Assembly (NCBI GenBank): GCA_965227835.1
Contig: OZ245768.1
Span: 1,110,001 to 1,142,000 of the forward strand
Length of the DNA stretch: 32,000 bases
Origin: Candidatus Saccharimonadota bacterium
Lineage (GTDB): Bacteria > Patescibacteriota > Gracilibacteria > BD1-5 > UBA6164
Reading direction: 5' to 3'
Shown here: positions 3,655 through 16,669 of the stretch, piece by piece
Position numbering within the stretch: position 1 is the stretch's first letter
Layout of the letters: the number at the start of each line of letters is the position of its first letter
Notes under the pieces: model-generated
What the model was told of the DNA's origin: nothing
What the model saw: the letters and a program-made list of their open reading frames with translations, nothing else
The model's database searches: none
Program-made: the position numbers and the translations under genes

Positions 3655-3871
3655 GTGTTTTTATTTTAATATGTATTATAGAATGGAAATTTATTATATA
3701 GTAAACTAAGATGCAAATTGTTTTGCTATATAGATGATAAAAAGCAAATAGAAACTTCCAATAGCAAATGGCTAAAGCCATCTGTTTACGAAAAATAAAA
3801 AGGTTACTTTTTTTGCATAATTTAAATTTTTTCAAGCTCTTTTCTAAATATAACAAAAATTTTCAAATAAT

Positions 3872-4939: not shown

Positions 4940-5662
4940 TTAACTTAATAAATCTTCATATTTGGTCCACACTATTCAATCTAGGTGTAGTAGAGGTATT
5001 TTTAGTTTTTCTGATAGTTCAAGATAGAATTTTTTTATATCATCGTAATCTTCTTTATATTTATTAAAAATGGCTATAAGTCTTGAATCAATGGGTATAA
5101 ATATTGTTTTGGGAAATTCTCTAAATCCATAAATATTTCTCGCTGCATATCAAAACATTTTTATAGCAAAAACTATTGTTTTTGCATCTTTTTTTTGATT
5201 CATGGTTTCTGCTAGTTTTTCTAGTAGTATTTCCATATTTTCATAAAAATATTGAGGTTTTTTGATAAAATCATCTAAAAAGGGTAGTAGCTTTTCAAGT
5301 CTTTTGTGTTTCATAGAAGTAAATCTCCTATTATTTTTAGAGTTTGATATAAAATTTCATAGCTCTTCAATGATTTGTTTTGAATTATTTTCTTGTCAGG
5401 AAAATATTTGAGATTTTGAAGAAAAATACTGGTTAAATTCTTCCCAATAGAGTTCACCTTTTCAAGATAGTTGATAGCATATAAGGGAATTTGATATTAC
5501 CAGAGCTAGATATGAGTTTTTGTTTTCCACATTTTTTTCTAGATTTTTTAGTGCAATAAATTGCCTATCTTTTTCTTCAAATAATATTGACTCTTTTATG
5601 TTGTATTTTTTAAGTTTATCGTATAGTTTTTGCATATTTAAGATTTTATTTTTAATTTTCAT
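4940..5662 (-). CDS. N-glycosylase/DNA lyase, archaeal-type 8-oxoguanine glycosylase (AGOG family), 240 aa
   Basis: ALVISNSLICYQLSGKGELYWEEF, TIVFAIKMFGYAARN, IPIDSRL and PLLHLDGIVW match the AGOG pattern (SYQLxGKGExxW, K-containing helix, IPVDxR, LHLDxxxW). Track ORF 5462..5662 continues through TGA codons to TAA at 4940-4942. Confidence 0.75.
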
Positions 5663-5836: not shown

Positions 5837-5913
5837 GCGGGTGTAGCTCAATTGGCTAGAGCATCTGCCTTCCAAGCAGAGGGTTGTGGGTTCGAGACCC
5901 ATCACCCGCTCCA
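5837..5913 (+). tRNA. tRNA-Gly (anticodon UCC), CCA encoded
   Basis: Manual cloverleaf: acceptor GCGGGTG/CACCCGC, D arm GCTC-AATTGGCTA-GAGC, anticodon arm TCTGC-CTTCCAA-GCAGA, T arm GTGGG-TTCGAGA-CCCAT, discriminator T, then CCA. Confidence 0.9.
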
Positions 5914-5932
5914 AAATAAAAATTTATTTAAG

Positions 5933-5987
5933 AGTAGAAAGTAGAAAGTTTATCTAAATGCTTTCTTTAGGAAGTCTACTTTTTTTA
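5933..5987 (+). terminator. Compound hairpin plus T7 run between tRNA-Gly and tRNA-Ile
   Basis: The outer stem is AGTAGA (5933-5938)/TCTACT (5975-5980) and the inner stem is AGAAAG/CTTTCT. It is followed by TTTTTTT. Confidence 0.4.
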
Positions 5988-6014
5988 TTTATAGGGTTTA
6001 TTTAAATATTTTTC

Positions 6015-6091
6015 GGGTGTATAGCTCAGCTGGTTAGAGCGCACGACTGATAATCGTGAGGTCGGAAGTTCAAGTCTTCCTATACCCACCA
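6015..6091 (+). tRNA. tRNA-Ile (anticodon GAU), CCA encoded
   Basis: Acceptor GGGTGTA/TATACCC, D arm GCTC-AGCTGGTTA-GAGC, anticodon arm CACGA-CTGATAA-TCGTG, T arm GGAAG-TTCAAGT-CTTCC, then A and CCA. Confidence 0.9.
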
Positions 6092-6093
6092 TG

Positions 6094-6170
6094 CGGAGAC
6101 TGGCGCAATTGGCTAGCGCACACGGTTTGGGACCGTGGGGTTGTGAGTTCGAGTCTCACGTTTCCGACCA
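6094..6170 (+). tRNA. tRNA-Pro (anticodon UGG), CCA encoded
   Basis: Acceptor CGGAGAC/GTTTCCG with the C1-G72 pair typical of bacterial tRNA-Pro. Anticodon arm CACGG-TTTGGGA-CCGTG, T arm GTGAG-TTCGAGT-CTCAC. It starts 2 nt after the CCA of tRNA-Ile. Confidence 0.9.
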
Positions 6171-6175
6171 TTTAA
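6164..6175 (+). repeat. Direct repeat CCGACCATTTAA, copy 1 (tRNA-Pro 3' end); putative att core
   Basis: It is identical to the 12-mer at 12087-12098. The CCGACC core is G+C-rich in a very AT-rich background. Confidence 0.55.
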
Positions 6176-6189
6176 GACAATCCATAGAA

Positions 6190-6226
6190 ATAGCATTAAC
6201 TTTTCCGAAGTTGGTGCTATTTTTTG
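6190..6226 (+). terminator. Rho-independent terminator of the tRNA cluster
   Basis: A 13-bp stem ATAGCATTAACTT/AAGTTGGTGCTAT (two U-G pairs) with loop TTCCG is followed by TTTTTTG. Confidence 0.65.
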
Positions 6227-6680
6227 TTGGTTCTAAACTATCTAATCAGCCACCTCTATTATTTAGTTCATTTTCTAGCGTTTGAAACCAAGGATACAGT
6301 TCTATAGCCAATACTCAGTCTTTTAGAGTAAAGTTCTGACCAAGTGTTGATAATATTTCTTTTTTCTCCTTTAAACTTCATTTTATAAATGATTCCATTG
6401 CTCTACATGCAAAATCAAATACTTTTTCAGTTAGTTCTTGGACTTTCTCAGCTTTTGTATCTAGTCATTCTCTTTGCTCTTTTAATCTCTCTATACTTAC
6501 TTTTAAATCTTCTTTCTTATTTAAAAACTCATCTTTGGATATGATTTCATCTAATAATAAGTCAGTTAAGTTTTTCGGCTTCTCTTCTTCACTATATATA
6601 TTTTTGTTAATATTCTCATATATTTTTAGCTTTTTCTCTATTTCTTCTGAATAGTTCTCTTTTAATGAGCCTGTTGTAAA
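6227..6680 (-). pseudogene. 5'-truncated large serine recombinase (C-terminal fragment only)
   Basis: The frame encodes ...DEFLNKKEDLKVSIERLKEQREGLDTKAEKVQELTEKVFDFACRAMESFIKGSLKEKKEILSTLGQNFTLKDGVLAIELYPWF, which resembles the coiled-coil C-terminal tail of large serine recombinases. The frame opens directly after a TAA at 6681-6683 with no start codon, no catalytic N-terminal domain and no upstream space. Confidence 0.55.
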
Positions 6681-7664: not shown

Positions 7665-7985
7665 ATGTTTAAAGATGAAGAAATTATTGAAAAAATCAGA
7701 AAAACTAAATTGTTTAACTCTAAGCTTAAACAAGATATTATTTGATACTTCAATTTCTTAAATCAAACTCAGAAAAATAACCTATTACAAGCTCTAAATA
7801 CAGAAACAAAAATTATAAAAAACTTTCTATCAACCTTAAAAGATAAAGAAATAATCAAATTTGAAGAAATAAAATGAAATATTGATAATTTACAAAGGCA
7901 AGATAGAAACTTAAAGGAGCTAAAAGAGAAAGCTCAAGATGAATTAGAAATAGATAACTTACTAAATAAACTAGATATAGTATAA
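7665..7985 (+). CDS. Small, probably all-helical protein (106 aa), translationally coupled to the toxin-like gene
   Basis: ATG 7665 to TAA 7983-7985. The stop overlaps the next ATG (TAATG). The sequence is charged and heptad-like (KELKEKAQDELEIDNLLNKL) and contains two in-frame TGA codons. Confidence 0.6.
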
Positions 7986-8917
7986 TGTCAGCAGAAGCAT
8001 TAAAAGGCTTTGATTCACAAGAATCAGCTATAAATTCTCAGGAAAGACAAAAAGAAGCTATCAGACAAGAAACTGATAGGCTTTATTCTAGTTTAGATAA
8101 TTTCAATTTAGAGCAAATGCAAACCTTAGTAGATACTTTATCTGCTAATAATCCTGAATTTAATCAAGAAATTACAAGCTTCCAAGATACTAATTCAACA
8201 AGAGTAGTAGAAATGTTAAAAGCAAATAGCGAAAGCAATGACAGTTCTAACTTTGAATATTTTTGAATTGATACAGAACAAATATGAGAAATACAATGAG
8301 AACTTGATAGCCTAGATTTAGATATAAATAATATACTTGATTGATATAAAACCTATATTGAAACAAATTTAAGCTGATTAACAAAAGAGCAAATAGATAA
8401 AGTAAAATTATCAATATCAAATAGAGTTTTAGGATTATGAAATGAAATAAAAGATTTAAAATGAGATTTAGATGATTGAAAAGATTTTAAAAACAACAGA
8501 TGGATTATTAATGAAAAAATTACTGATAATTTTTCAGATATAAATAATAAATTATTACCTAGCCTAGCTTTATTATCTAAAATCAATTCTTGAGAGAATA
8601 TAATTTTAAGAGAAGAGTGACTTTATGATGTAAGAGATAAATTAGAAGAAATCAAGAAAATGCTATGAGCTGAAGTTTTATCTGATTGAGATTTTGATAA
8701 AACTTGGAAAAGTATGGAGTTAATAGATGCTAATACCAATAATTGGAACATATTAGATATAAGAGAAGATATTGATGCTAGATTTTTAGAAGAAAATTGA
8801 ATAACAAGTATTGAAGATATATCTTTATTAAGTGAAAAAGATAAACAAATAGAAAGTACTGCTCAATATACATTTTATGCATTATGGGTCTGTTGCAAAT
8901 TAGATTTTAGCTATTAA
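7985..8917 (+). pseudogene. 5' part of the IS-disrupted 800-aa toxin-like gene (native codons 1-300, then 11 IS-encoded codons to a TAA)
   Basis: Track ORF 7985..8266 continues through many TGA codons. The native sequence ends at 8885, and the frame then runs into the IS left end to TAA 8915-8917. The N-terminal region is charged and looks helical. Confidence 0.75.
8886..8896 (+). repeat. IS left terminal inverted repeat
   Basis: GGGTCTGTTGC is the perfect reverse complement of 10079-10089. Confidence 0.8.
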
Positions 8918-8970
8918 AAAGAGAAAAAAGAGATATAATTAGATAGTAATTATATTCTAAGAAAATACCT

Positions 8971-9936
8971 ATGTGAGAATCAAATCAAATAAGTTTTGTT
9001 ATCCTAAACGAGCTAATTCCAGAAAATCATCAATATCGTAAATTTAAGAAATTGTGGAACTTTGATTGAGTAAATAAAATACTAAAAAATATAGATCTAT
9101 GAAAAACTCATGTATGATATTGAGTAAAAAAATTATTTCTATGTTTACTAATCCAGTTTATGGAAGATCTATCAGATAGAGAGTTAGAGAAATATCTTGC
9201 AGAAAATTTAGCTGGTAAATGGTTTTGCTGATTTAAATTAACAGATAAAACTCCAGATTATAGTATATTCTCAAGAGCAAGAAAAAAGATATGAACAAAT
9301 GAACTATCAAAGATATTTGAAGATTTAAAAAATCAATTATCAAATAAGGGGTATATGAGTGAAGTGTTTACATTTGTAGATGCTTCTCATTTAGTTACTA
9401 AAGCTAATTTATGGGAAGAAAGAGATAAATGAATAAAAGAATGATATGAAAAAATGAATAATGAAACTCTTCCAAAAGTTGCTAATGATAAGGAAGCTAA
9501 AATTTGATCTAAGTGAAAAAATAAATTTTGGTATGGTTATAAAAAACACGCTAGTGTTGATATGCAATCTTGAATGATAAACAAGATAGCTATAACTCAA
9601 GCTAATGTAACAGATGCAAAGTGAATGAAACATGTATTACCAAATTCATGAGCAGTATATGCTGATAAGTGATATTGTATTTGACCAGCTATATTATCAT
9701 CAAAAAAGAAGTGATTACATTTATGTGCAATAAAGAAGAATAATATGAAAGAGAAGGATAAGGATAAAGATAGATTTTATTCTAAACTTAGATCTCCTTA
9801 TGAGAGAGTATTTTCAAAAATGAATCATAGAGTGAGATATAAATCTGTAGTAAAAAACCAGTTTACTGCATTTATGGAAGCTATATCTTTTAATCTCAAA
9901 AGATTGGTTGTATTAGAGGAAATCCCAATAGCTTAG
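8971..9936 (+). CDS. IS5-family DDE transposase (DUF772-like N-terminus plus DDE_Tnp_1-like core), 321 aa
   Basis: Motifs are GYGVKKLFLCLLIQFMEDLSDRELEKYLAENLAGKWFCGF, TPDYSIFSRARKKIG, FVDASHL, FWYGYKKHASVD, VYADKGY and SPYERVFSKMN. It has many in-frame TGA=Gly codons, including ADK(TGA)Y. ATG 8971, TAG 9934-9936. Confidence 0.85.
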
Positions 9937-10078
9937 ATTAGTTTCCTTAGGTGGATTTTGTCTAAAATCCTAAATTATATATAAAAATGGCTATAATTTA
10001 ACAAAAAATAGATGAATTTTATAAATCTTTCATCTATTTAGTACTTTTCTTAATTAAAACTCTTTTTAAAATCAAAAC

Positions 10079-10089
10079 GCAACAGACCC
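10079..10089 (+). repeat. IS right terminal inverted repeat
   Basis: GCAACAGACCC is the reverse complement of 8886-8896. Confidence 0.8.
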
Positions 10090-10094
10090 ATTAT

Positions 10095-11596
10095 TAGCAA
10101 TTCAAATATGAGCTGAATTTACACCTGCTTGATGGACTATTTGAGCTTGAATTGATTGATATGACCTTTTTTCTGATAGTGAAGCATTAATAGATTTATG
10201 AAAAAAAATATGAGTTATAGATGAAAATTATAAAACTGAAAAAACTTTGGTAGACAATGTTTTAGCTGGAATTTGATTAATACCTTGAATGACTATATTA
10301 ACTAAATGAGATAAGTTATATACATTTTTTAAACAAATGTGACCAGAAGATAAAACTTTTTTTATGGAGCTACTAGATAAAGTATGAGAAAAGTTAGGTA
10401 TAGCTTGAGAGTATTTAAATAAGTTAAAAGATAAATTATTTTGAGTTAAAAGTAATAAAGTAGATAATTTTCGTAATTTTGACTGAATAGATTATAGTTA
10501 TACATCTCCTATTAATAAGATAGATGAATTATTGAAATTATGAGATTTAGAGAAGGTTGAAGAATTATTATTAACAAATAGTAGAAAATTATATTTTCCA
10601 GAAAATAGTTATAGTGAATTTAATAAATATATAACTCAATGAAATTATAAAGAAGCTTTTGAAATTTATAAACAATCAGAAGCTAAAAGTATAGAAAAAT
10701 TGAAAAATATATGATTTTCTATAGAAGATAATCTAAAATTTTATGAAGCATTAAAAAATTGAAATATTGATGAAATAAAAAGGCTTTTAGATAAATCAAA
10801 AAAAATCTCATGAGATGTATATAAATGAGACTATAAAAATACTTCTGATTTGTATTGAATTTCTAGGGATAAAATAACTGATGTAGAGAAATATAATAAA
10901 AAGGGGAAAATGATTAATCCTATATCATGAAAAGAAGAATTATTAAGTAGAAATGAGTTACATGAACTTATTATATCAAAATTTCTAGATTGAATAGAGA
11001 AAAAAGATACACCAGTATTTTTAGTATTATGATGAATGAGTTGAAGTTGAAAAAGTGAAATAAAGAAATGATTAAATAATGAAATATGAAATCATATTGA
11101 AGTTGACCCAGATGCTGTAAGAAGATTATTACCAGAATTTAAAGAAAATATGCCAGAAACAAGTATTACAACACATCAAGAAAGTCTATTTATATCAAAA
11201 CAAATATTAAATAGAGCTATTGAAAATAATGGTAATATATTAAGAGAAACTATAATGACTAGAAAAGAACCATTATTGAATTATATTGAAAAATGATGAG
11301 AAACTCATAAAATGGACTTTAGATTTGTATTTTCATGAGAAGAATCTTGGCTTAGAAATACTTTATGAAGAGATAGAACAGTAAATCCACAAGTTTATGT
11401 TTCTCAATTTAAAGCATTTGAAACAGTAGTGGATATGATGTGAGATAGTAATATAAAAAATTTAAAAATAATACTAAATCTAAAAGAAGAAGAAATTATT
11501 TTTAATAAAATAAACTGATTAGCAAAACCTACATCATGAGAATGAATGAAAAAATTTTTTATATTTAATGAAATATCTAAAAAAATTAATAATTAA
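10095..11596 (+). pseudogene. 3' part of the IS-disrupted toxin-like gene: glycine-rich linker plus C-terminal Zeta-toxin/P-loop kinase domain
   Basis: There are 500 in-frame codons to TAA 11594-11596. The Walker A motif is VFLVLGGMSGSGKSEI, followed by EVDPDAVRRLLPEF (compare the Zeta/PezT GxxGxGKT ... D-D-F-R ... P arrangement). Upstream segments are AGWTIGAGIDGYDLFSD and LAGIGLIPGMTILTKGDK. Confidence 0.7.
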
Positions 11597-11606
11597 TAAT
11601 TATATT

Positions 11607-12008
11607 ATGGAAATAAATCAAAAGGATTATGAAAAATTCTTAAAAGATATATCTTGATGACAAGATATATCTAAAATACCTGAAAAATTAGAACAAACTA
11701 AAGAAGAAAAAGAACATTCTTTGTTTGTTTATATGTGCTATGTTGTTTCTTGAATGAATCCACCATTTGAAATAACAAAAGAAAAATGGAATGAATTAAT
11801 ACAATTTTGAATGGTAACTTCAGAAATTACTAAAAATTGAATAGAGTATAGCATTACTGAGAAAGCACTTGAATATGTATGATGAGTAGATAGTGATTAT
11901 GCAAAAAAAATAGAACCTTATAAAGAAGATAAATTATTATGGATAGATAGGGATAGTATTGATTGAAATTTATGAAAAACTAGAGAATCTATTGATAATA
12001 TAGTTTAA
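11607..12008 (+). CDS. Small hypothetical protein (133 aa); positional candidate for the cognate immunity/antitoxin
   Basis: ATG 11607 lies 10 nt after the toxin-like stop, and the stop is TAA 12006-12008. It has several in-frame TGA codons and is followed by a strong terminator. Confidence 0.55.
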
Positions 12009-12202: not shown

Positions 12203-13162
12203 TTATATACTTATGTCTACATTATCCAATGTTTTTTTATATTGTTCCAACATAAATTTATAATACTTCTTTTTATTCCCTGATTTGCATGAAGAAATAG
12301 AATTAAAATATGCTTGTTTATTTTCTGTAAATACTATCATAGGAAAGAAGTTATTTTGCAATAATATTTTATTCATAATAAATCTACCTGTTCTTCCATT
12401 TCCATTTTCAAATGGATGAATTTGTTCATATTTTAAATGAAAATCAAATGCTTCCTGTAACGAAAAAGTTATCTTTTTATTTTCCCTGTATCTTTGAATT
12501 AAACTATTTATTTCTCATGAAACATTTTCAGGTGCTGTAGTGGTAATATTATTTACAATATTTACTATTTTCTTAAATCCTCGTGGATATCTCACTCCTG
12601 TTTCTTGTAGTAAATCCTTCGTAAGAATATGGTACAACTTTTTTATATTAACCTCATTAAAAAGAAATTTTTCTTTTATAAAATTCCAAGACTTTATTGA
12701 ATTTTCAACTTCCTGTATTTCATTTTTTAATTTATACTTATATTTTTTATCATCTATAATCTTTTCCACCTCTTCTTCTGGTATCTTACTACCCTCTATA
12801 TTATTTGAGTTATAAATAAATTTTTTTGGAAAAACATATTCCAACCATGTTTTAATATTATTTCAAATTGATAATACTTCTATATCACATGTAATTTTAT
12901 TTTTTTGAATACATGAAATAATATCAACACTGTTACTGAATAATTTAGACTGAAATATTACTCTGTTCAATAAATCTTCACTATAAAAATATATTAAAAA
13001 ATTCTTATAACTTTGGGAATTATAAATAAATTCACATTCTTTTTTTGTAAGCTGAATAATATTATTCTTTCTAATTTTCTCTGAATGTATTTTTATTAGA
13101 AATTTATTTCAAAAAGATTTTTTAGCCAAAAATAATCATGAATCTTTTTTTTCTATAAACAT
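12203..13162 (-). CDS. fic: Fic-domain protein (AMPylase type), class II with an internal inhibitory motif, 319 aa
   Basis: The canonical motif is HPFENGNGRTGR. The upstream SNNIEG fits the (S/T)xxxE(G/N) inhibitory helix. ATG 13160-13162, TAA 12203-12205. Track ORF 12515..12844 is the middle of this frame, and four TGA=Gly codons are present. Confidence 0.85.
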
Positions 13163-13327: not shown

Positions 13328-13356
13328 TACACAAATTTTACAAAAAAAAGAGAGCA
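13328..13356 (+). repeat. Direct repeat flanking the purB cassette (3' side of the gene)
   Basis: TACACAAATTTT (13328-13339) is identical to 14959-14970. A similar A-rich tail ending in AAGAG-GC follows both copies. Confidence 0.5.
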
Positions 13357-13368
13357 TCTCTGCTCTCT
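13342..13368 (-). terminator. Rho-independent terminator of purB
   Basis: The stem AGAGAGCA/TGCTCTCT (13349-13368) has loop TCTC. On the minus strand it is followed by a T8 run. It lies 17 nt downstream of the stop. Confidence 0.8.
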
Positions 13369-13384
13369 TTTTATTTTCTCCTCT

Positions 13385-14860
13385 TTATACTTCAGATTTT
13401 TGGGCATGTACTGGATTGTCTTTTGCATACTTAAGTACACTTGACACAATATCAGACTGTAAGAATTCCTCACAAATCTGAACAGAAGCACCGATGTAAT
13501 TCATTGGATCAAGTTTTTCAGGAAATACAACTCCTTCAAACTCTTTATATCCACCATTTTGGAGACGCTGTAGAAGATCATTATCATTAATATCACCATT
13601 AGCAATATCAAGCCAAACCCCCTTACATCTTTCCATAATGATATGATGGGTTTCCTGACGAGGAGCACCTTGTTTAACTGCCAAAGACAGAACTTCCTCA
13701 GTAGCAAGAAATGGAAGCATTTTTGCCAAACGTGTTGATACAACATTTTCAAACACATTTAGACCTTCCATAACCTCAACTGCAAGCTTTAGACAAGCAT
13801 CAACGACTAAGAATGACTCAGGCAGGTAAATACGACGACCTGCAGAATCATCTAGAGTGCGTTCAAGACCTTGAACTTGCTGTGTCATATCTGCCATAAG
13901 TTTAAAACCAGGCAAAGTACGAGCAAGAGAGTTAAGTCTCTCATCTTTCATAGGATTTTGCTTCCATGGCATTGCAGAAGAACCAACCTGATTTTTTCCT
14001 CTAGGTTCACCAACTTCACCAGTTCTTGCAAGATGACGAATATCAGTTGCAAACTTAGCCAAGTTATTCCCTAGAGAAGTAAAACAAGACAGTAATGCCA
14101 CTTCCATACTACGATGAGCCGTTTGACCAGGTACTAAATCAGTAACTGGAATATCAAGTTTTTTTGCTACAGAATCTTGGAACTCTTTAACTTTAGCAAA
14201 ATCACCATCAACCAATTTCATCATTGCTTCGTAAGTACCAGTTGCACCACGTACACCTTTCATATTCCAGTTATCTAGAAGATATTCAAGAGTATTAAGA
14301 TCTTCCATTACTGGACCTACCCACATAGCAATTCTTTTACCAAGTGTGACTGCAGCTGCAGGCTGTAAATGAGTTTCACCCAACATAGGTAAAGATTTAA
14401 ACCTATCTACTTGCTCAAATGCAATCTTCAAAAAGTTTGCAGTATGAGCCATGATATGTTTAATCCATTCTCTCTGCTGGATAATCTCACCATTAGATGT
14501 TGCATCTTCAGATGTCATTGCAATGTGAAGAACTTCACCCAATTCAGGAACAAGATGATTACACACATAGCTAATATTAGCCATTACATCGTGTTTGGTC
14601 TCACACTCAATTTCACGGATTTTATCCCAATCAAACAATGTAATGTTATCACGAAACTTTTGAACAGCCTCTTTTGATGGTGGTTGAACAAGTACACCCA
14701 TTTCCATCTGTGTTTCCAAAACCGCTAACCATACGGTACGTATGCAAGTCCATCTATAAGCCTCACTTGTAAGAGTTTTAGCTTCCGTAGAACAGTAACG
14801 GCCAGTTAAAGGTGATGAGTAAATATCACTCTTTCCAAATTGTGAAAGCTCAATAAACAT
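13385..14860 (-). CDS. purB: Adenylosuccinate lyase (long, ADSL-like form), 491 aa
   Basis: This is the only long ORF in the standard-code track. It carries the fumarate-lyase signature GSSAMPWKQNP and the motifs LGETHLQPAA, ERTLDDSAGRR and LPFLATEE. AGGAGG lies 5 nt upstream of the ATG. The stop is TAA. None of about 29 glycines (my count) is TGA. Confidence 0.9.
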   Translation of the reverse strand: MFIELSQFGKSDIYSSPLTGRYCSTEAKTLTSEAYRWTCIRTVWLAVLETQMEMGVLVQPPSKEAVQKFRDNITLFDWDKIREIECETKHDVMANISYVCNHLVPELGEVLHIAMTSEDATSNGEIIQQREWIKHIMAHTANFLKIAFEQVDRFKSLPMLGETHLQPAAAVTLGKRIAMWVGPVMEDLNTLEYLLDNWNMKGVRGATGTYEAMMKLVDGDFAKVKEFQDSVAKKLDIPVTDLVPGQTAHRSMEVALLSCFTSLGNNLAKFATDIRHLARTGEVGEPRGKNQVGSSAMPWKQNPMKDERLNSLARTLPGFKLMADMTQQVQGLERTLDDSAGRRIYLPESFLVVDACLKLAVEVMEGLNVFENVVSTRLAKMLPFLATEEVLSLAVKQGAPRQETHHIIMERCKGVWLDIANGDINDNDLLQRLQNGGYKEFEGVVFPEKLDPMNYIGASVQICEEFLQSDIVSSVLKYAKDNPVHAQKSEV

Positions 14861-14902
14861 TTTTTCCTCCTATCTTTGAATTATAGCCTAAAAGCTATAA
14901 AT

Positions 14903-14930
14903 TTTATATTTATAAAAATTTAAAAGTCAA
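14903..14930 (-). promoter_or_regulatory. Sigma70-like promoter of purB
   Basis: On the minus strand: TTGACT (14930-14925), a 16-nt spacer, then TATAAA (14908-14903). Confidence 0.35.
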
Positions 14931-14958
14931 AATATCCTCGATAGAATCTATCACGAAA

Positions 14959-14987
14959 TACACAAATTTTGCAAAGCAAAAAGAGCC
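14959..14987 (+). repeat. Direct repeat flanking the purB cassette (5' side of the gene)
   Basis: See 13328-13356. The 12-nt core is exact and the tail is similar. Confidence 0.5.
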
Positions 14988-15085
14988 ATTTATGATTAAT
15001 TTCTTGTGCTCTAAAAATTTAGAGTAAACTAACTTGTAAGTTAGGCTGTTTTAAAATGCAATTTTAATTGAAAAGGAAATTTTTA

Positions 15086-15146
15086 TTTTTTCAACAGAGG
15101 ATTTTAGCCCTTTGCTATTATGAAAAGTTTCTATCTTTAAAAAGAG
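15086..15146 (+). repeat. 61-nt intergenic repeat, copy 1 (TTTTTTCAACAGAG ... TTTGCTATT ... TTTCTAT)
   Basis: An ungapped comparison with 31317-31377 gives 47 of 61 identical positions by my count, including a 14-nt identical start. Confidence 0.6.
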
Positions 15147-15232
15147 ACTATCTAGTTTGCTATAATAATTTTCTACAAAAATCTGACCCTTTAAAAATTT
15201 CACAAAAACTAGCAAAAATTTTATAACCTTTT

Positions 15233-16669
15233 TTACAACCCCTGTATTATCTTACTCATAGAATCAACTCAAAATCATGTCATTCATTTGTTTGCAAGAC
15301 CATAAGCTTCATAAGAATTTAGGGCTGTTCATGCTATATCAATATGTGTATATTCTTCCTCTCTTGATAAAAAATTGTATATAAATGCTCCTCACATGGT
15401 GGATCAAGCATATACTCATTTACTAAGATTTTGTAAATCTGCTACTTCTCATTTGGTTTTTTCTATAAAATAATCATCAAAAGGTAGTCTATTGTATTTT
15501 TCAAAATTATCTTCTGAATATTTAATAAACTTATTTATTAAATCATTATCTGTTCACATTATTCAAGCATGTCTAAATCACAATCATACTATACAAGCTC
15601 AGGTAAGTGTAGCTATTGTTAAAATTTTATCTAACTTGTAGTTTTTTGAAATATAGCTTACTCAATCAGCTAATATAAGTCTTCATTCTGCATCTGTATG
15701 CACTATATCTACTGTTTTTCAAGAATAAGATTTTATTATATCACTTGGTTTAAATGATTCTCAAGAAATATGATTTTCAGCCAAAACCAAGCATGCTATA
15801 ATATTTACATTTAGCTTTTTATCATCTAGTTCTTTCATCAAACTAAAAACTTGGGCCGCTCAACACATATCTCATTTCATTTCATACATACTATCTCATG
15901 GCTTTACCTGTATTCATCAAGTATCAAAAGTAACTCATTTTCATACTATTCATATAGTTGGAAGTTTTTTATTTACTATGTTTTTTAAAATTATGAGTGA
16001 TGGTTTATGTTTTGATCATTTTCAAACTGCTTTTAACAAATTTAATCATATTTTCTCAATCTTTTTATAATCAAAAACTTCTATTTTAGTATTTTTAAAC
16101 TTGGTTTTTTCAACTATTTTTACAAAACTTTCAGGATAAAGTTCATTTGAAGGCATAGATCAAAGATCTCTAGCTAAAACTATATTTTCTAGTGTAGATA
16201 TTCTTGCATTTATTGCCTTTTCTCCAATGTTTTCTTTATTTAATAAAATGTTTATTTTGTCTTTCTTTTTTGATTCCTCATCTGTTTTGAAATCAGTGTA
16301 TTTATATCTTGATAGAACTGATATATCAAGCATATTTAAAAGCATTTTTTCATCTCTAGAATATATAGTAAAATTGCTATTTTTATAATTTCTAAATATA
16401 TCAGAAGCGAAATAAATAAAATCCTTTTTTTCTTTATTCAAATAAAAAATAACTGTAATATTTTCAAAACCATCTTGTCAAACAAAAAAATCAAAACTTG
16501 TATTTTCTCACTTTTTTAAAATTTCTTTTATTTTTTCACTTATTTTTTCTTCTGTATCAAATTTTTCTAAAATTAGATCTTGAAATTCTTCTATATCTGA
16601 TTGTTTTTGTATTAAACAAATCAAGTTACTACCTTTTATTTTAGATAGATTTTTTTCTATTTTTATCAT
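15233..16669 (-). CDS. pepA: Leucyl aminopeptidase (M17 family), 478 aa
   Basis: Motifs are [58 protein letters not shown] and HIDIAGTA. Nearly all of these glycines are TGA. ATG 16667-16669, TAA 15233-15235. Confidence 0.85.

Follow-up and report, generated by a model that had tools for sequence, protein, structure and literature searches.

The gene considered here is purB, which encodes adenylosuccinate lyase (ADSL) and lies on the minus strand of a 32,000-nucleotide stretch of contig OZ245768.1, from a Gracilibacteria (BD1-5) genome; the whole of this stretch is referred to below as the window. The window genome has a G+C content of about 25% and uses the code in which UGA means glycine (code 25). 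Six-frame open reading frames (ORFs) of at least 100 aa total 40 kb with TGA taken as sense, compared with 8 kb under the standard code, and TGA stands at conserved glycine positions, as in the GGGKGG motif of GDH (written G-TGA-TGA-KGG) and likewise in FGFRGEAL of MutL; it is a TGA that can be read as sense and that occupies conserved glycines which identifies code 25. The minus-strand gene order is mutL, a membrane protein gene, pepA (M17 peptidase), purB and a Fic-domain gene. An original prediction, made from the letters of the window, had drawn attention to purB as a gene of about 29 glycines without a single TGA, set among neighbours that write roughly two thirds of their glycines with this codon. 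We count 29 GGN codons in purB (22 of them GGT) and no TGA, and 396 TGA among the 545 glycine codons (73%) of the 22 other window ORFs, pepA itself being native in this respect with TGA at 31 of its 37 glycines. At the neighbours' rate, the chance of finding none in 29 is about 5e-17. The features of the locus are as follows.

13385 to 14860, minus strand: purB, adenylosuccinate lyase, 491 aa; TAA stop at 13385-13387, in-frame TGA 0
14866 to 14871, minus strand: Shine-Dalgarno sequence AGGAGG, 5 nt before the ATG, read directly
14881 to 14900, minus strand: 5' leader palindrome TTATAGC-N6-GCTATAA, with the core AGCTTTT..RRCTA conserved in close orthologs
14901 to 14930, minus strand: promoter-like site TTGACT (-35), N18, TAAAAT (-10), found by scan, 10/12 matches
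13345 to 13372, minus strand: intrinsic terminator of purB, 12-bp stem, -15.8 kcal/mol, z = -3.3
13328 to 13355, plus strand: direct repeat copy a, TACACAAATTTTACAAAAAAAAGAGAGC, overlapping the tail of the purB terminator
14959 to 14986, plus strand: direct repeat copy b, TACACAAATTTTGCAAAGCAAAAAGAGC, upstream of the purB promoter
15233 to 16669, minus strand: pepA, M17 leucyl aminopeptidase, upstream of purB; Pfam Peptidase_M17 6.9e-97
12203 to 13162, minus strand: Fic-domain gene, directly downstream of purB; Pfam Fic 1.1e-12

The product of purB is predicted to be a divergent ADSL of the long, eukaryote-type form, in keeping with the resemblance originally proposed. Both Pfam domains, Lyase_1 (PF00206, 2.3e-30) and ADSL_C (PF10397, 9.5e-09), score above their gathering scores, and the best NCBIfam match is TIGR00928 (purB) at 290.1 bits, which falls below the equivalog cut-off of 326.2, with the next family at 111 bits. 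The best solved structures are those of human ADSL (PDB 2J91 and 5NX8; E = 4.5e-83), matched over the full length. Where the human enzyme has IGSSAMPYKRNPM, GFTHFQPA and RHDVMA, the window protein has VGSSAMPWKQNPM, GETHLQPA and KHDVMA, and HDVMA, ETHLQPA and GSSAMPWKQNPM fall on the human catalytic His/Ser regions. The catalytic His motifs are present, as is the GSSxMPxKxNP signature loop, and both are invariant in a 17-sequence alignment of the purB clade. What distinguishes the protein from other long ADSLs, human and PVC/Hydrogenedentes alike, is its distance from them: outside its own 21-member clade, which has a long stem, identity is 36-39%.

The description of purB as compositionally foreign holds only in part. 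The gene is richer in G+C than its surroundings, as had been seen by eye (0.382 versus about 0.17-0.30 in the neighbours), but the bulk of the excess lies at codon positions 1 and 2 (G+C at position 1, 0.55; at position 3, 0.24 versus about 0.15), and the fourfold sites are A/T-rich like those of native genes (Ala A19/C1/G1/T16; Pro A8/T11). With such A/T-ending sites, purB lacks the atypical synonymous-site composition of a recently acquired genomic island. In the lineage of the window, purB avoids ATA (1/24), AGR (8/22) and TTA (8/50) and favours GGT, CGT and CTT. The extra G+C of purB is mainly a matter of amino-acid composition and codon-box choice and not of foreign base composition, because a conserved protein sequence is combined with GGN, CGN and CTN codons that replace TGA, AGA and TTA.

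The signals around purB, among them its own promoter and strong terminator, are largely those that had been described. The Shine-Dalgarno (SD) sequence is unique to purB among the starts of 20 window genes, the other 19 being without even a 4-nt core. In the related loci recovered from other genomes (to which we gave handles of the form L001), SD-like motifs precede purB in L001, L002, L004, L005, L088, L091 and L090. A survey of the window, L001, L002, L004, L006 and L088 found SD cores of at least 4 nt to be rare (9 of 75 genes), the other starts having mostly plain A/T-rich leaders; purB carries such a core in four of five loci examined by this measure, and an SD-like core also in L001, L005, L091 and the standard-code L090. 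The promoter elements are kept as well, TTGAC with TATAAA upstream of purB in L001, L004 and L005, and TTGACT in L002, L088 and L091. L001, L004 and L005 retain the terminator stem, in which a C:G pair has become T:A by compensatory change; being flanked by A and T runs, the terminator could work bidirectionally. Close orthologs thus share one unit that runs from TTGAC (-35) and TATAAA (-10) through the AGCTTTT..RRCTA leader, AGGAG and the ATG...TAA reading frame to the terminator. The leader palindrome folds at -7.1 kcal/mol (z = -1.7) in the window only, and a conserved 5'-leader hairpin or riboswitch was rejected as a candidate, with no Rfam match and no consensus structure across orthologs.

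The original prediction also had direct repeats bracketing a cassette. A repeat does exist, its two copies matching at 24/28 positions ungapped and 25/27 gapped, but its score does little to set it apart. Its alignment score of 38 compares with a maximum of 35 in 1000 shuffles and with 37 and 35 for other real intergenic pairs of the window, and copy a is the tail of a purB terminator that is conserved in other genomes. No integrase or recombinase adjoins purB, and an IS5 transposase lies 3.4 kb away. A separate observation concerns L001, in which purB is flanked by two copies of a hairpin of about 55 nt that resembles a terminator (ATCAAAAAAACCAC...GTGGTTTTTTC), one about 160-210 nt upstream and the other 60-115 nt downstream, with an alignment score of 60; the locus holds another match of equal strength, which points to a dispersed intergenic repeat instead of an att site.

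Relatives of purB were searched for in 5.8 billion proteins. Identity to the window protein descends in a graded series (83, 82, 81, 80, 76, 75, 73, 66, 59, 58, 55, 53 ... 40%), beyond which comes a plateau at 36-38% formed by ADSLs of Planctomycetota, Lentisphaerae, Hydrogenedentes and eukaryotes; in this collection, identity outside the clade never exceeds about 39%. Among the matches listed from a scan of the genome collection with the clade alignment, only distant standard-code ADSLs appeared. Exact matches to the window purB protein and to eight proteins encoded around it were not on record, probably because the genes in the collection had been called with a different translation table. 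The 21 graded sequences form one clade with 96% bootstrap support (neighbour-joining), joined by a long stem to ADSLs of the PVC/Hydrogenedentes type. Ten purB loci (the window, L001, L004, L005, L093, L006, L094, L002, L088 and L091, of which L002 is Ca. Gracilibacteria bacterium 28_42_T64) lie in contigs whose other genes require TGA as sense. Their purB proteins are mutually 49-84% identical and all the genes end in TAA. Together they hold 299 glycine codons (GGT 174, GGA 86, GGG 31, GGC 8), of which none is TGA, compared with 26-91% TGA among the glycines of their neighbour genes.

The surroundings of purB are also shared between these lineages. The Fic gene that follows purB shows 76% identity between the window and L002; downstream of purB, L001 and L002 run collinear through folD and then genes of about 350 aa, 440-520 aa and 819 aa; and the order purB-folD-X is kept in L004. 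In L088, which belongs to the other deep subclade, an RND efflux operon lies next to purB, as it does in L001 and L002. Across these genomes the identity of purB is 50-56%, inside the 28-87% range of its neighbours. Conserved neighbours accompany purB in every related code-25 locus recovered, an empty site not having been sought directly. PurB is therefore old and vertically inherited together with its conserved neighbours, and a TGA-free purB with shared neighbours across code-25 genomes refutes the recent acquisition from a standard-code donor that had originally been put forward. Nor did protein comparison and phylogeny find a donor clade, sequences outside the purB clade reaching at most about 39% identity.

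The RND pump gene of these loci (ACR_tran; L001 6235-9375, L002 242-3409 on the minus strand, L088 8091-11231) is itself TGA-rich (60-88%) and is 82-87% identical where the other shared genes are 28-63% identical, and may be either unusually constrained or exchanged among code-25 lineages. The idea that purB is anomalously divergent, as it can appear beside this gene, was set aside given the range of its other neighbours.

An internal control on the lack of TGA in purB comes from positions at which the protein does not vary. In invariant columns of the purB alignment, arginine is written with both CGN and AGR in 15 of 15 cases and leucine with both CTN and TTR in 12 of 13, and TGA occurs at none of the 14 glycine columns, all of which vary among the GGN codons. 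Between lineages, synonymous change has reached saturation, with 44-66% of fourfold sites differing in purB as in ACR_tran, and native genes mix TGA with GGN freely at conserved glycines (40 of 78 columns in ACR_tran, 13 of 20 in folD). With L088 as the outgroup, TGA was gained at ancestral GGN codons of ACR_tran in 5 of 16 branch-opportunities, or about 0.3 per site per branch, from few sites; as a rough estimate, this rate predicts about nine TGA gains per purB branch, compared with the zero observed. A slow gain of TGA from GGN was therefore rejected as the cause, both by these polarised changes and by the internal control that arginine and leucine provide.

The exclusion is confined to the reading frame. 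TGA is found out of frame in every purB (8-17 in frame 2 and 26-40 in frame 3; 8 and 40 in the two other frames of the window gene) and never in frame, which places the constraint at translation and not on the DNA. It is also specific to UGA, since in L088 and L091 purB has native-looking arginine and isoleucine usage (AGR 21/23 and 18/22) and still no TGA (0/28 and 0/29), beside neighbours with 80-95% TGA. The further idea that purB shuns every codon open to reassignment was rejected, since CGA and CGG, which are read as Trp in some lineages (PMC8629427), are both used freely at conserved arginines of purB. Judged from these alignments, purifying selection acting at translation keeps purB free of in-frame UGA in all the code-25 lineages covered here.

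The original prediction held purB to demonstrate that the code barrier can be crossed by a TGA-free gene, which is true in general, although purB itself offers no evidence of it. In L005 a PiT/PHO4 phosphate transporter gene (3-1274) lies next to purB (1444-2919), in a TGA-rich contig, with TGA at 0 of its 32 glycines and a TAA stop, and the PHO4-purB pair is found in a second assembly too. PHO4 is 80-86% identical to standard-code Gammaproteobacteria genes (Sedimenticola, Ca. Venteria), and a donor-like contig, L122, has 41% G+C, a pst/phoBR/dsrC context and the standard code. On these matches, PHO4 of L005 is a genuine cross-code import. It resembles purB in being TGA-free, TAA-ended and set in TGA-rich contigs; the difference is that its standard-code homologs stand at 80-86% identity, whereas purB has no such close ones, homologs outside its own clade not rising above about 39%.

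Only one member of the purB clade was found outside code-25 contigs. L090 (contig SRR11476867_407074) carries a purB that is 50% identical, with a TAG stop and GGAGGA as its SD, in an AT-rich contig (flanks of 28% G+C) that apparently uses the standard code, its flanking genes being without in-frame TGA and one of them ending in a TGA stop. This purB has no relatives closer than the clade itself. Members of "Gracilibacteria" with the standard code and release factor 2 have been documented with Codetta (PMC8629427), and L090 may belong to such a standard-code relative.

Several other histories could be imagined for a TGA-free gene in this setting. An assembly artefact, in which a standard-code segment had been mis-joined into a code-25 contig, would explain the local G+C step from 0.25 to 0.39 at the purB borders, but has a vanishing probability given that a TGA-free purB sits amid TGA-rich genes in at least nine independent assemblies (JGI, ENA, Logan, NCBI), a recurrence that excludes a mis-join, and that its flanks and fourfold sites are native in composition. 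A recent import of a purB cassette between pepA and Fic, with a target-site duplication, accounts for the missing TGA, the higher G+C, the gene's own promoter, SD and terminator, the 25/27-nt repeat and the IS5-type transposase 3.4 kb away, and cross-code imports are real in this group, as PHO4 shows. We nevertheless consider it extremely improbable: conserved neighbours accompany the TGA-free gene in code-25 lineages down to 49% identity, the linkage of purB to Fic is common to L002, nothing outside the clade among 5.8 billion proteins is more than about 39% identical, the fourfold sites are native-like and other intergenic pairs score about as well as the repeat. Very improbable, too, is a passive relic, meaning that the code-25 ancestor obtained purB from a standard-code donor once the reassignment had taken place and that, without any selection, TGA has simply not had time to build up in the gene. 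Purine genes are uncommon among Candidate Phyla Radiation bacteria (PMC6851277), and this and the long stem of the clade make an ancient transfer plausible, with a gene that was TGA-free on entry as PHO4 shows imports to be at first. Against this stand the saturated synonymous sites, the arginine and leucine boxes that have switched nearly everywhere when glycine never has, the gain by native genes of about 0.3 TGA per GGN site per branch, and 86 GGA codons that are one step from TGA and of which none has been converted in ten lineages, even in L088 with its neighbours at 91% TGA. Recent import, passive relic and assembly chimera are all effectively excluded.

Two further explanations retain somewhat more weight. 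The purB unit might be a code-neutral shuttle that cycles between code-25 and standard-code organisms or phages, with only UGA-free copies surviving. A promoter, SD, TAA and terminator make up an autonomous unit that almost any bacterium could express; repeats flank the gene in the window and in L001; immediate neighbours differ among orthologs that are 75-83% identical; L090 places a clade member in a standard-code contig; and TGA-free phages of Gracilibacteria have been described (PMC10746230). The code-25 purB genes are however deeply monophyletic, with both subclades linked by conserved neighbours, and purB has diverged within the range of those neighbours. The standard-code member is a single one without closer relatives, no integrase or recombinase is adjacent, and neither 50,697 phage records (INPHARED) nor IMG/VR yielded a clade member, so that we regard the shuttle as improbable. 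The other explanation is one of insulation, in which purB would belong to a small set of genes whose translation is needed when tRNA-Gly(UCA) is limiting or disabled, whether by dormancy or stress, by the action of a toxin or anticodon nuclease, or by infection with a code-11-compatible phage. It would fit an exclusion that remains UGA-specific even where the other codon usage of purB is native-like (L088, L091), the existence of other UGA-free or UGA-poor genes (SSB 0/14, NUDIX 0/11, purC 3/24), the toxin-type genes near purB in several loci and the UGA-free phages of these hosts (PMC10746230). However, the other UGA-free genes are short and statistically weak, and a regulated or attacked tRNA-Gly(UCA) is a supposition reached by inference. 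Insulation accordingly seems to us unlikely as the principal cause, and in ranking the possible reasons for selection we would place exceptionally strong selection on the yield or fidelity of translation first, insulation second and the shuttle third.

We therefore favour, with a probability of roughly 60%, the explanation that purB is a native, vertically inherited gene kept UGA-free by translational selection, likely for high or very reliable expression. The unit as a whole would be self-contained, with a consensus-like sigma-70 promoter, an SD in a genome that hardly uses SD sequences, a TAA stop and a strong terminator, and it is most likely a need for high-level or highly reliable expression that makes the cost of decoding UGA selectable. 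Such a cost could arise from competition for a single tRNA-Gly(UCA), from misincorporation of Trp or from drop-off. The subunits of ADSL, a homotetramer, share their active sites, an arrangement that could worsen the harm done by faulty subunits. A BD1-5 bacterium is reported to mistranslate UGA at a low level (PMC4032931), and attention has been drawn to wobble ambiguity of UGA and UGG (PMC8629427). The likeness to highly expressed bacterial genes is considerable, in that window purB avoids ATA, AGR and TTA, prefers GGT and CGT, and has a strong promoter, SD and terminator; it differs from them in that L088 and L091 avoid TGA only and that the avoided codon is the commonest one for glycine.

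Several points weigh against the favoured explanation. The pattern in L088 and L091 speaks against a general codon optimisation of purB, and TGA, as the commonest glycine codon here, is not obviously "slow". Genes that are as a rule strongly expressed are not UGA-free here, with TGA at 20 of 41 glycines in enolase and 14 of 38 in SAM synthetase (MetK), both from L006, and at 24 of 36 in GDH of the window; this comparison comprises enolase, MetK and GDH. Transcript or protein abundance data for purB were not found, the supplements of two proteomics papers being without ADSL. Lastly, the purB tree is by neighbour-joining only, and the placement of the standard-code member within it is weakly supported (46-57%).

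Once a stop codon has been completely reassigned, it is commonly regarded as a sense codon like any other. PurB has excluded the reassigned codon throughout the known history of the UGA=Gly lineage, with other synonymous routes open to it, and an exclusion specific to this gene implies that in these bacteria the decoding of UGA is still costly for particular genes or risky under certain conditions. This turns the question of whether reassigned codons are fully neutral, or are ambiguous or regulated, into a testable one. It also follows that in recoded genomes a gene free of the reassigned codon and rich in G+C is an unreliable sign of horizontal transfer, and the pair of purB and PHO4 shows how resident and imported TGA-free genes can be told apart. 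As a tentative extension, code-25 bacteria might keep a small conserved set of UGA-free genes, of which purB would be the clearest, whose translation is independent of tRNA-Gly(UCA). It is similarly speculative, and on balance doubtful, that this set serves as a regulatory "safe mode" or as a shield against attackers of UGA decoding such as UGA-free phages. In that event, the use of a reassigned codon would be a layer of gene regulation.

In the literature searched we found no account of a reassigned codon being kept out of one particular chromosomal housekeeping gene throughout a clade, as it is from purB; the enzyme itself is ordinary. The nearest described case is the TGA-free coding of code-11-compatible phages whose predicted hosts are Gracilibacteria and Absconditabacteria (Liu et al., mBio 2023, PMC10746230). 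Like purB, they have no in-frame TGA and a non-TGA stop and read alike under both codes; unlike them, purB is a chromosomal housekeeping gene in a context of mutL, pepA and fmt, with neighbours conserved across deep lineages.

As to function, no second purine gene occurs among the window ORFs annotated or read by eye, as originally stated. The conversion of IMP to AMP/ATP is a typical retained step in Gracilibacteria, and purine synthesis is near-complete in the 28_42_T64 genome (PMC11452946, PMC6851277), with which the role in IMP-to-AMP conversion proposed at the outset agrees. PurC lies near purB in L006. PurB would thus supply AMP from IMP and, in relatives that keep purC, could also serve de novo purine synthesis.

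The remaining features of the window are listed below.

8971-9936: IS5-type DDE transposase, 17 TGA; 3.4 kb from purB, beyond Fic
10070-11596: 508-aa protein with a Zeta-toxin domain, 38 TGA
11568-12008: small ABC-3C MC2-like protein
5837-6170: tRNA cluster, Gly(TCC), Ile(GAT) and Pro(TGG)
4940-5662, minus strand: match to the AGOG N-glycosylase/DNA lyase family, PF09171, 3.2e-53

The TGA-rich transposase and Zeta-toxin genes belong to a variable patch past Fic (7970-12008), and toxin-type genes (Fic and Zeta toxin here, Phd/YefM in L004) recur around purB in several loci. The tRNA cluster explains the sole other G+C peak of the window (6.0-6.5 kb) and the spurious ORFs on both strands at 5985-6680; a tRNA-Gly(UCA) gene is absent from the window. 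The TGA-free or TGA-poor genes seen in other loci are SSB (L004, 10089-10529, minus strand, 0/14), a NUDIX hydrolase (L006, 15993-16445, 0/11), purC (L006, 10311-11348, 3/24) and an ABC-F-like ATPase (L004, 197-1648, 3/33). Finally, an intergenic element of about 64 nt, for which there was no Rfam match, is present in three window copies, at 15085-15147 and 31316-31378 on the plus strand and 3748-3811 on the minus strand. Its core is TTCAACAGAG..TTTAG...TTTGCTATT.T.G.AAA.TTTCTAT; it holds a promoter-like TTCAAC-N17-TGcTATTAT, and two of the copies lie directly past gene ends (gdh and a prmC-like gene).

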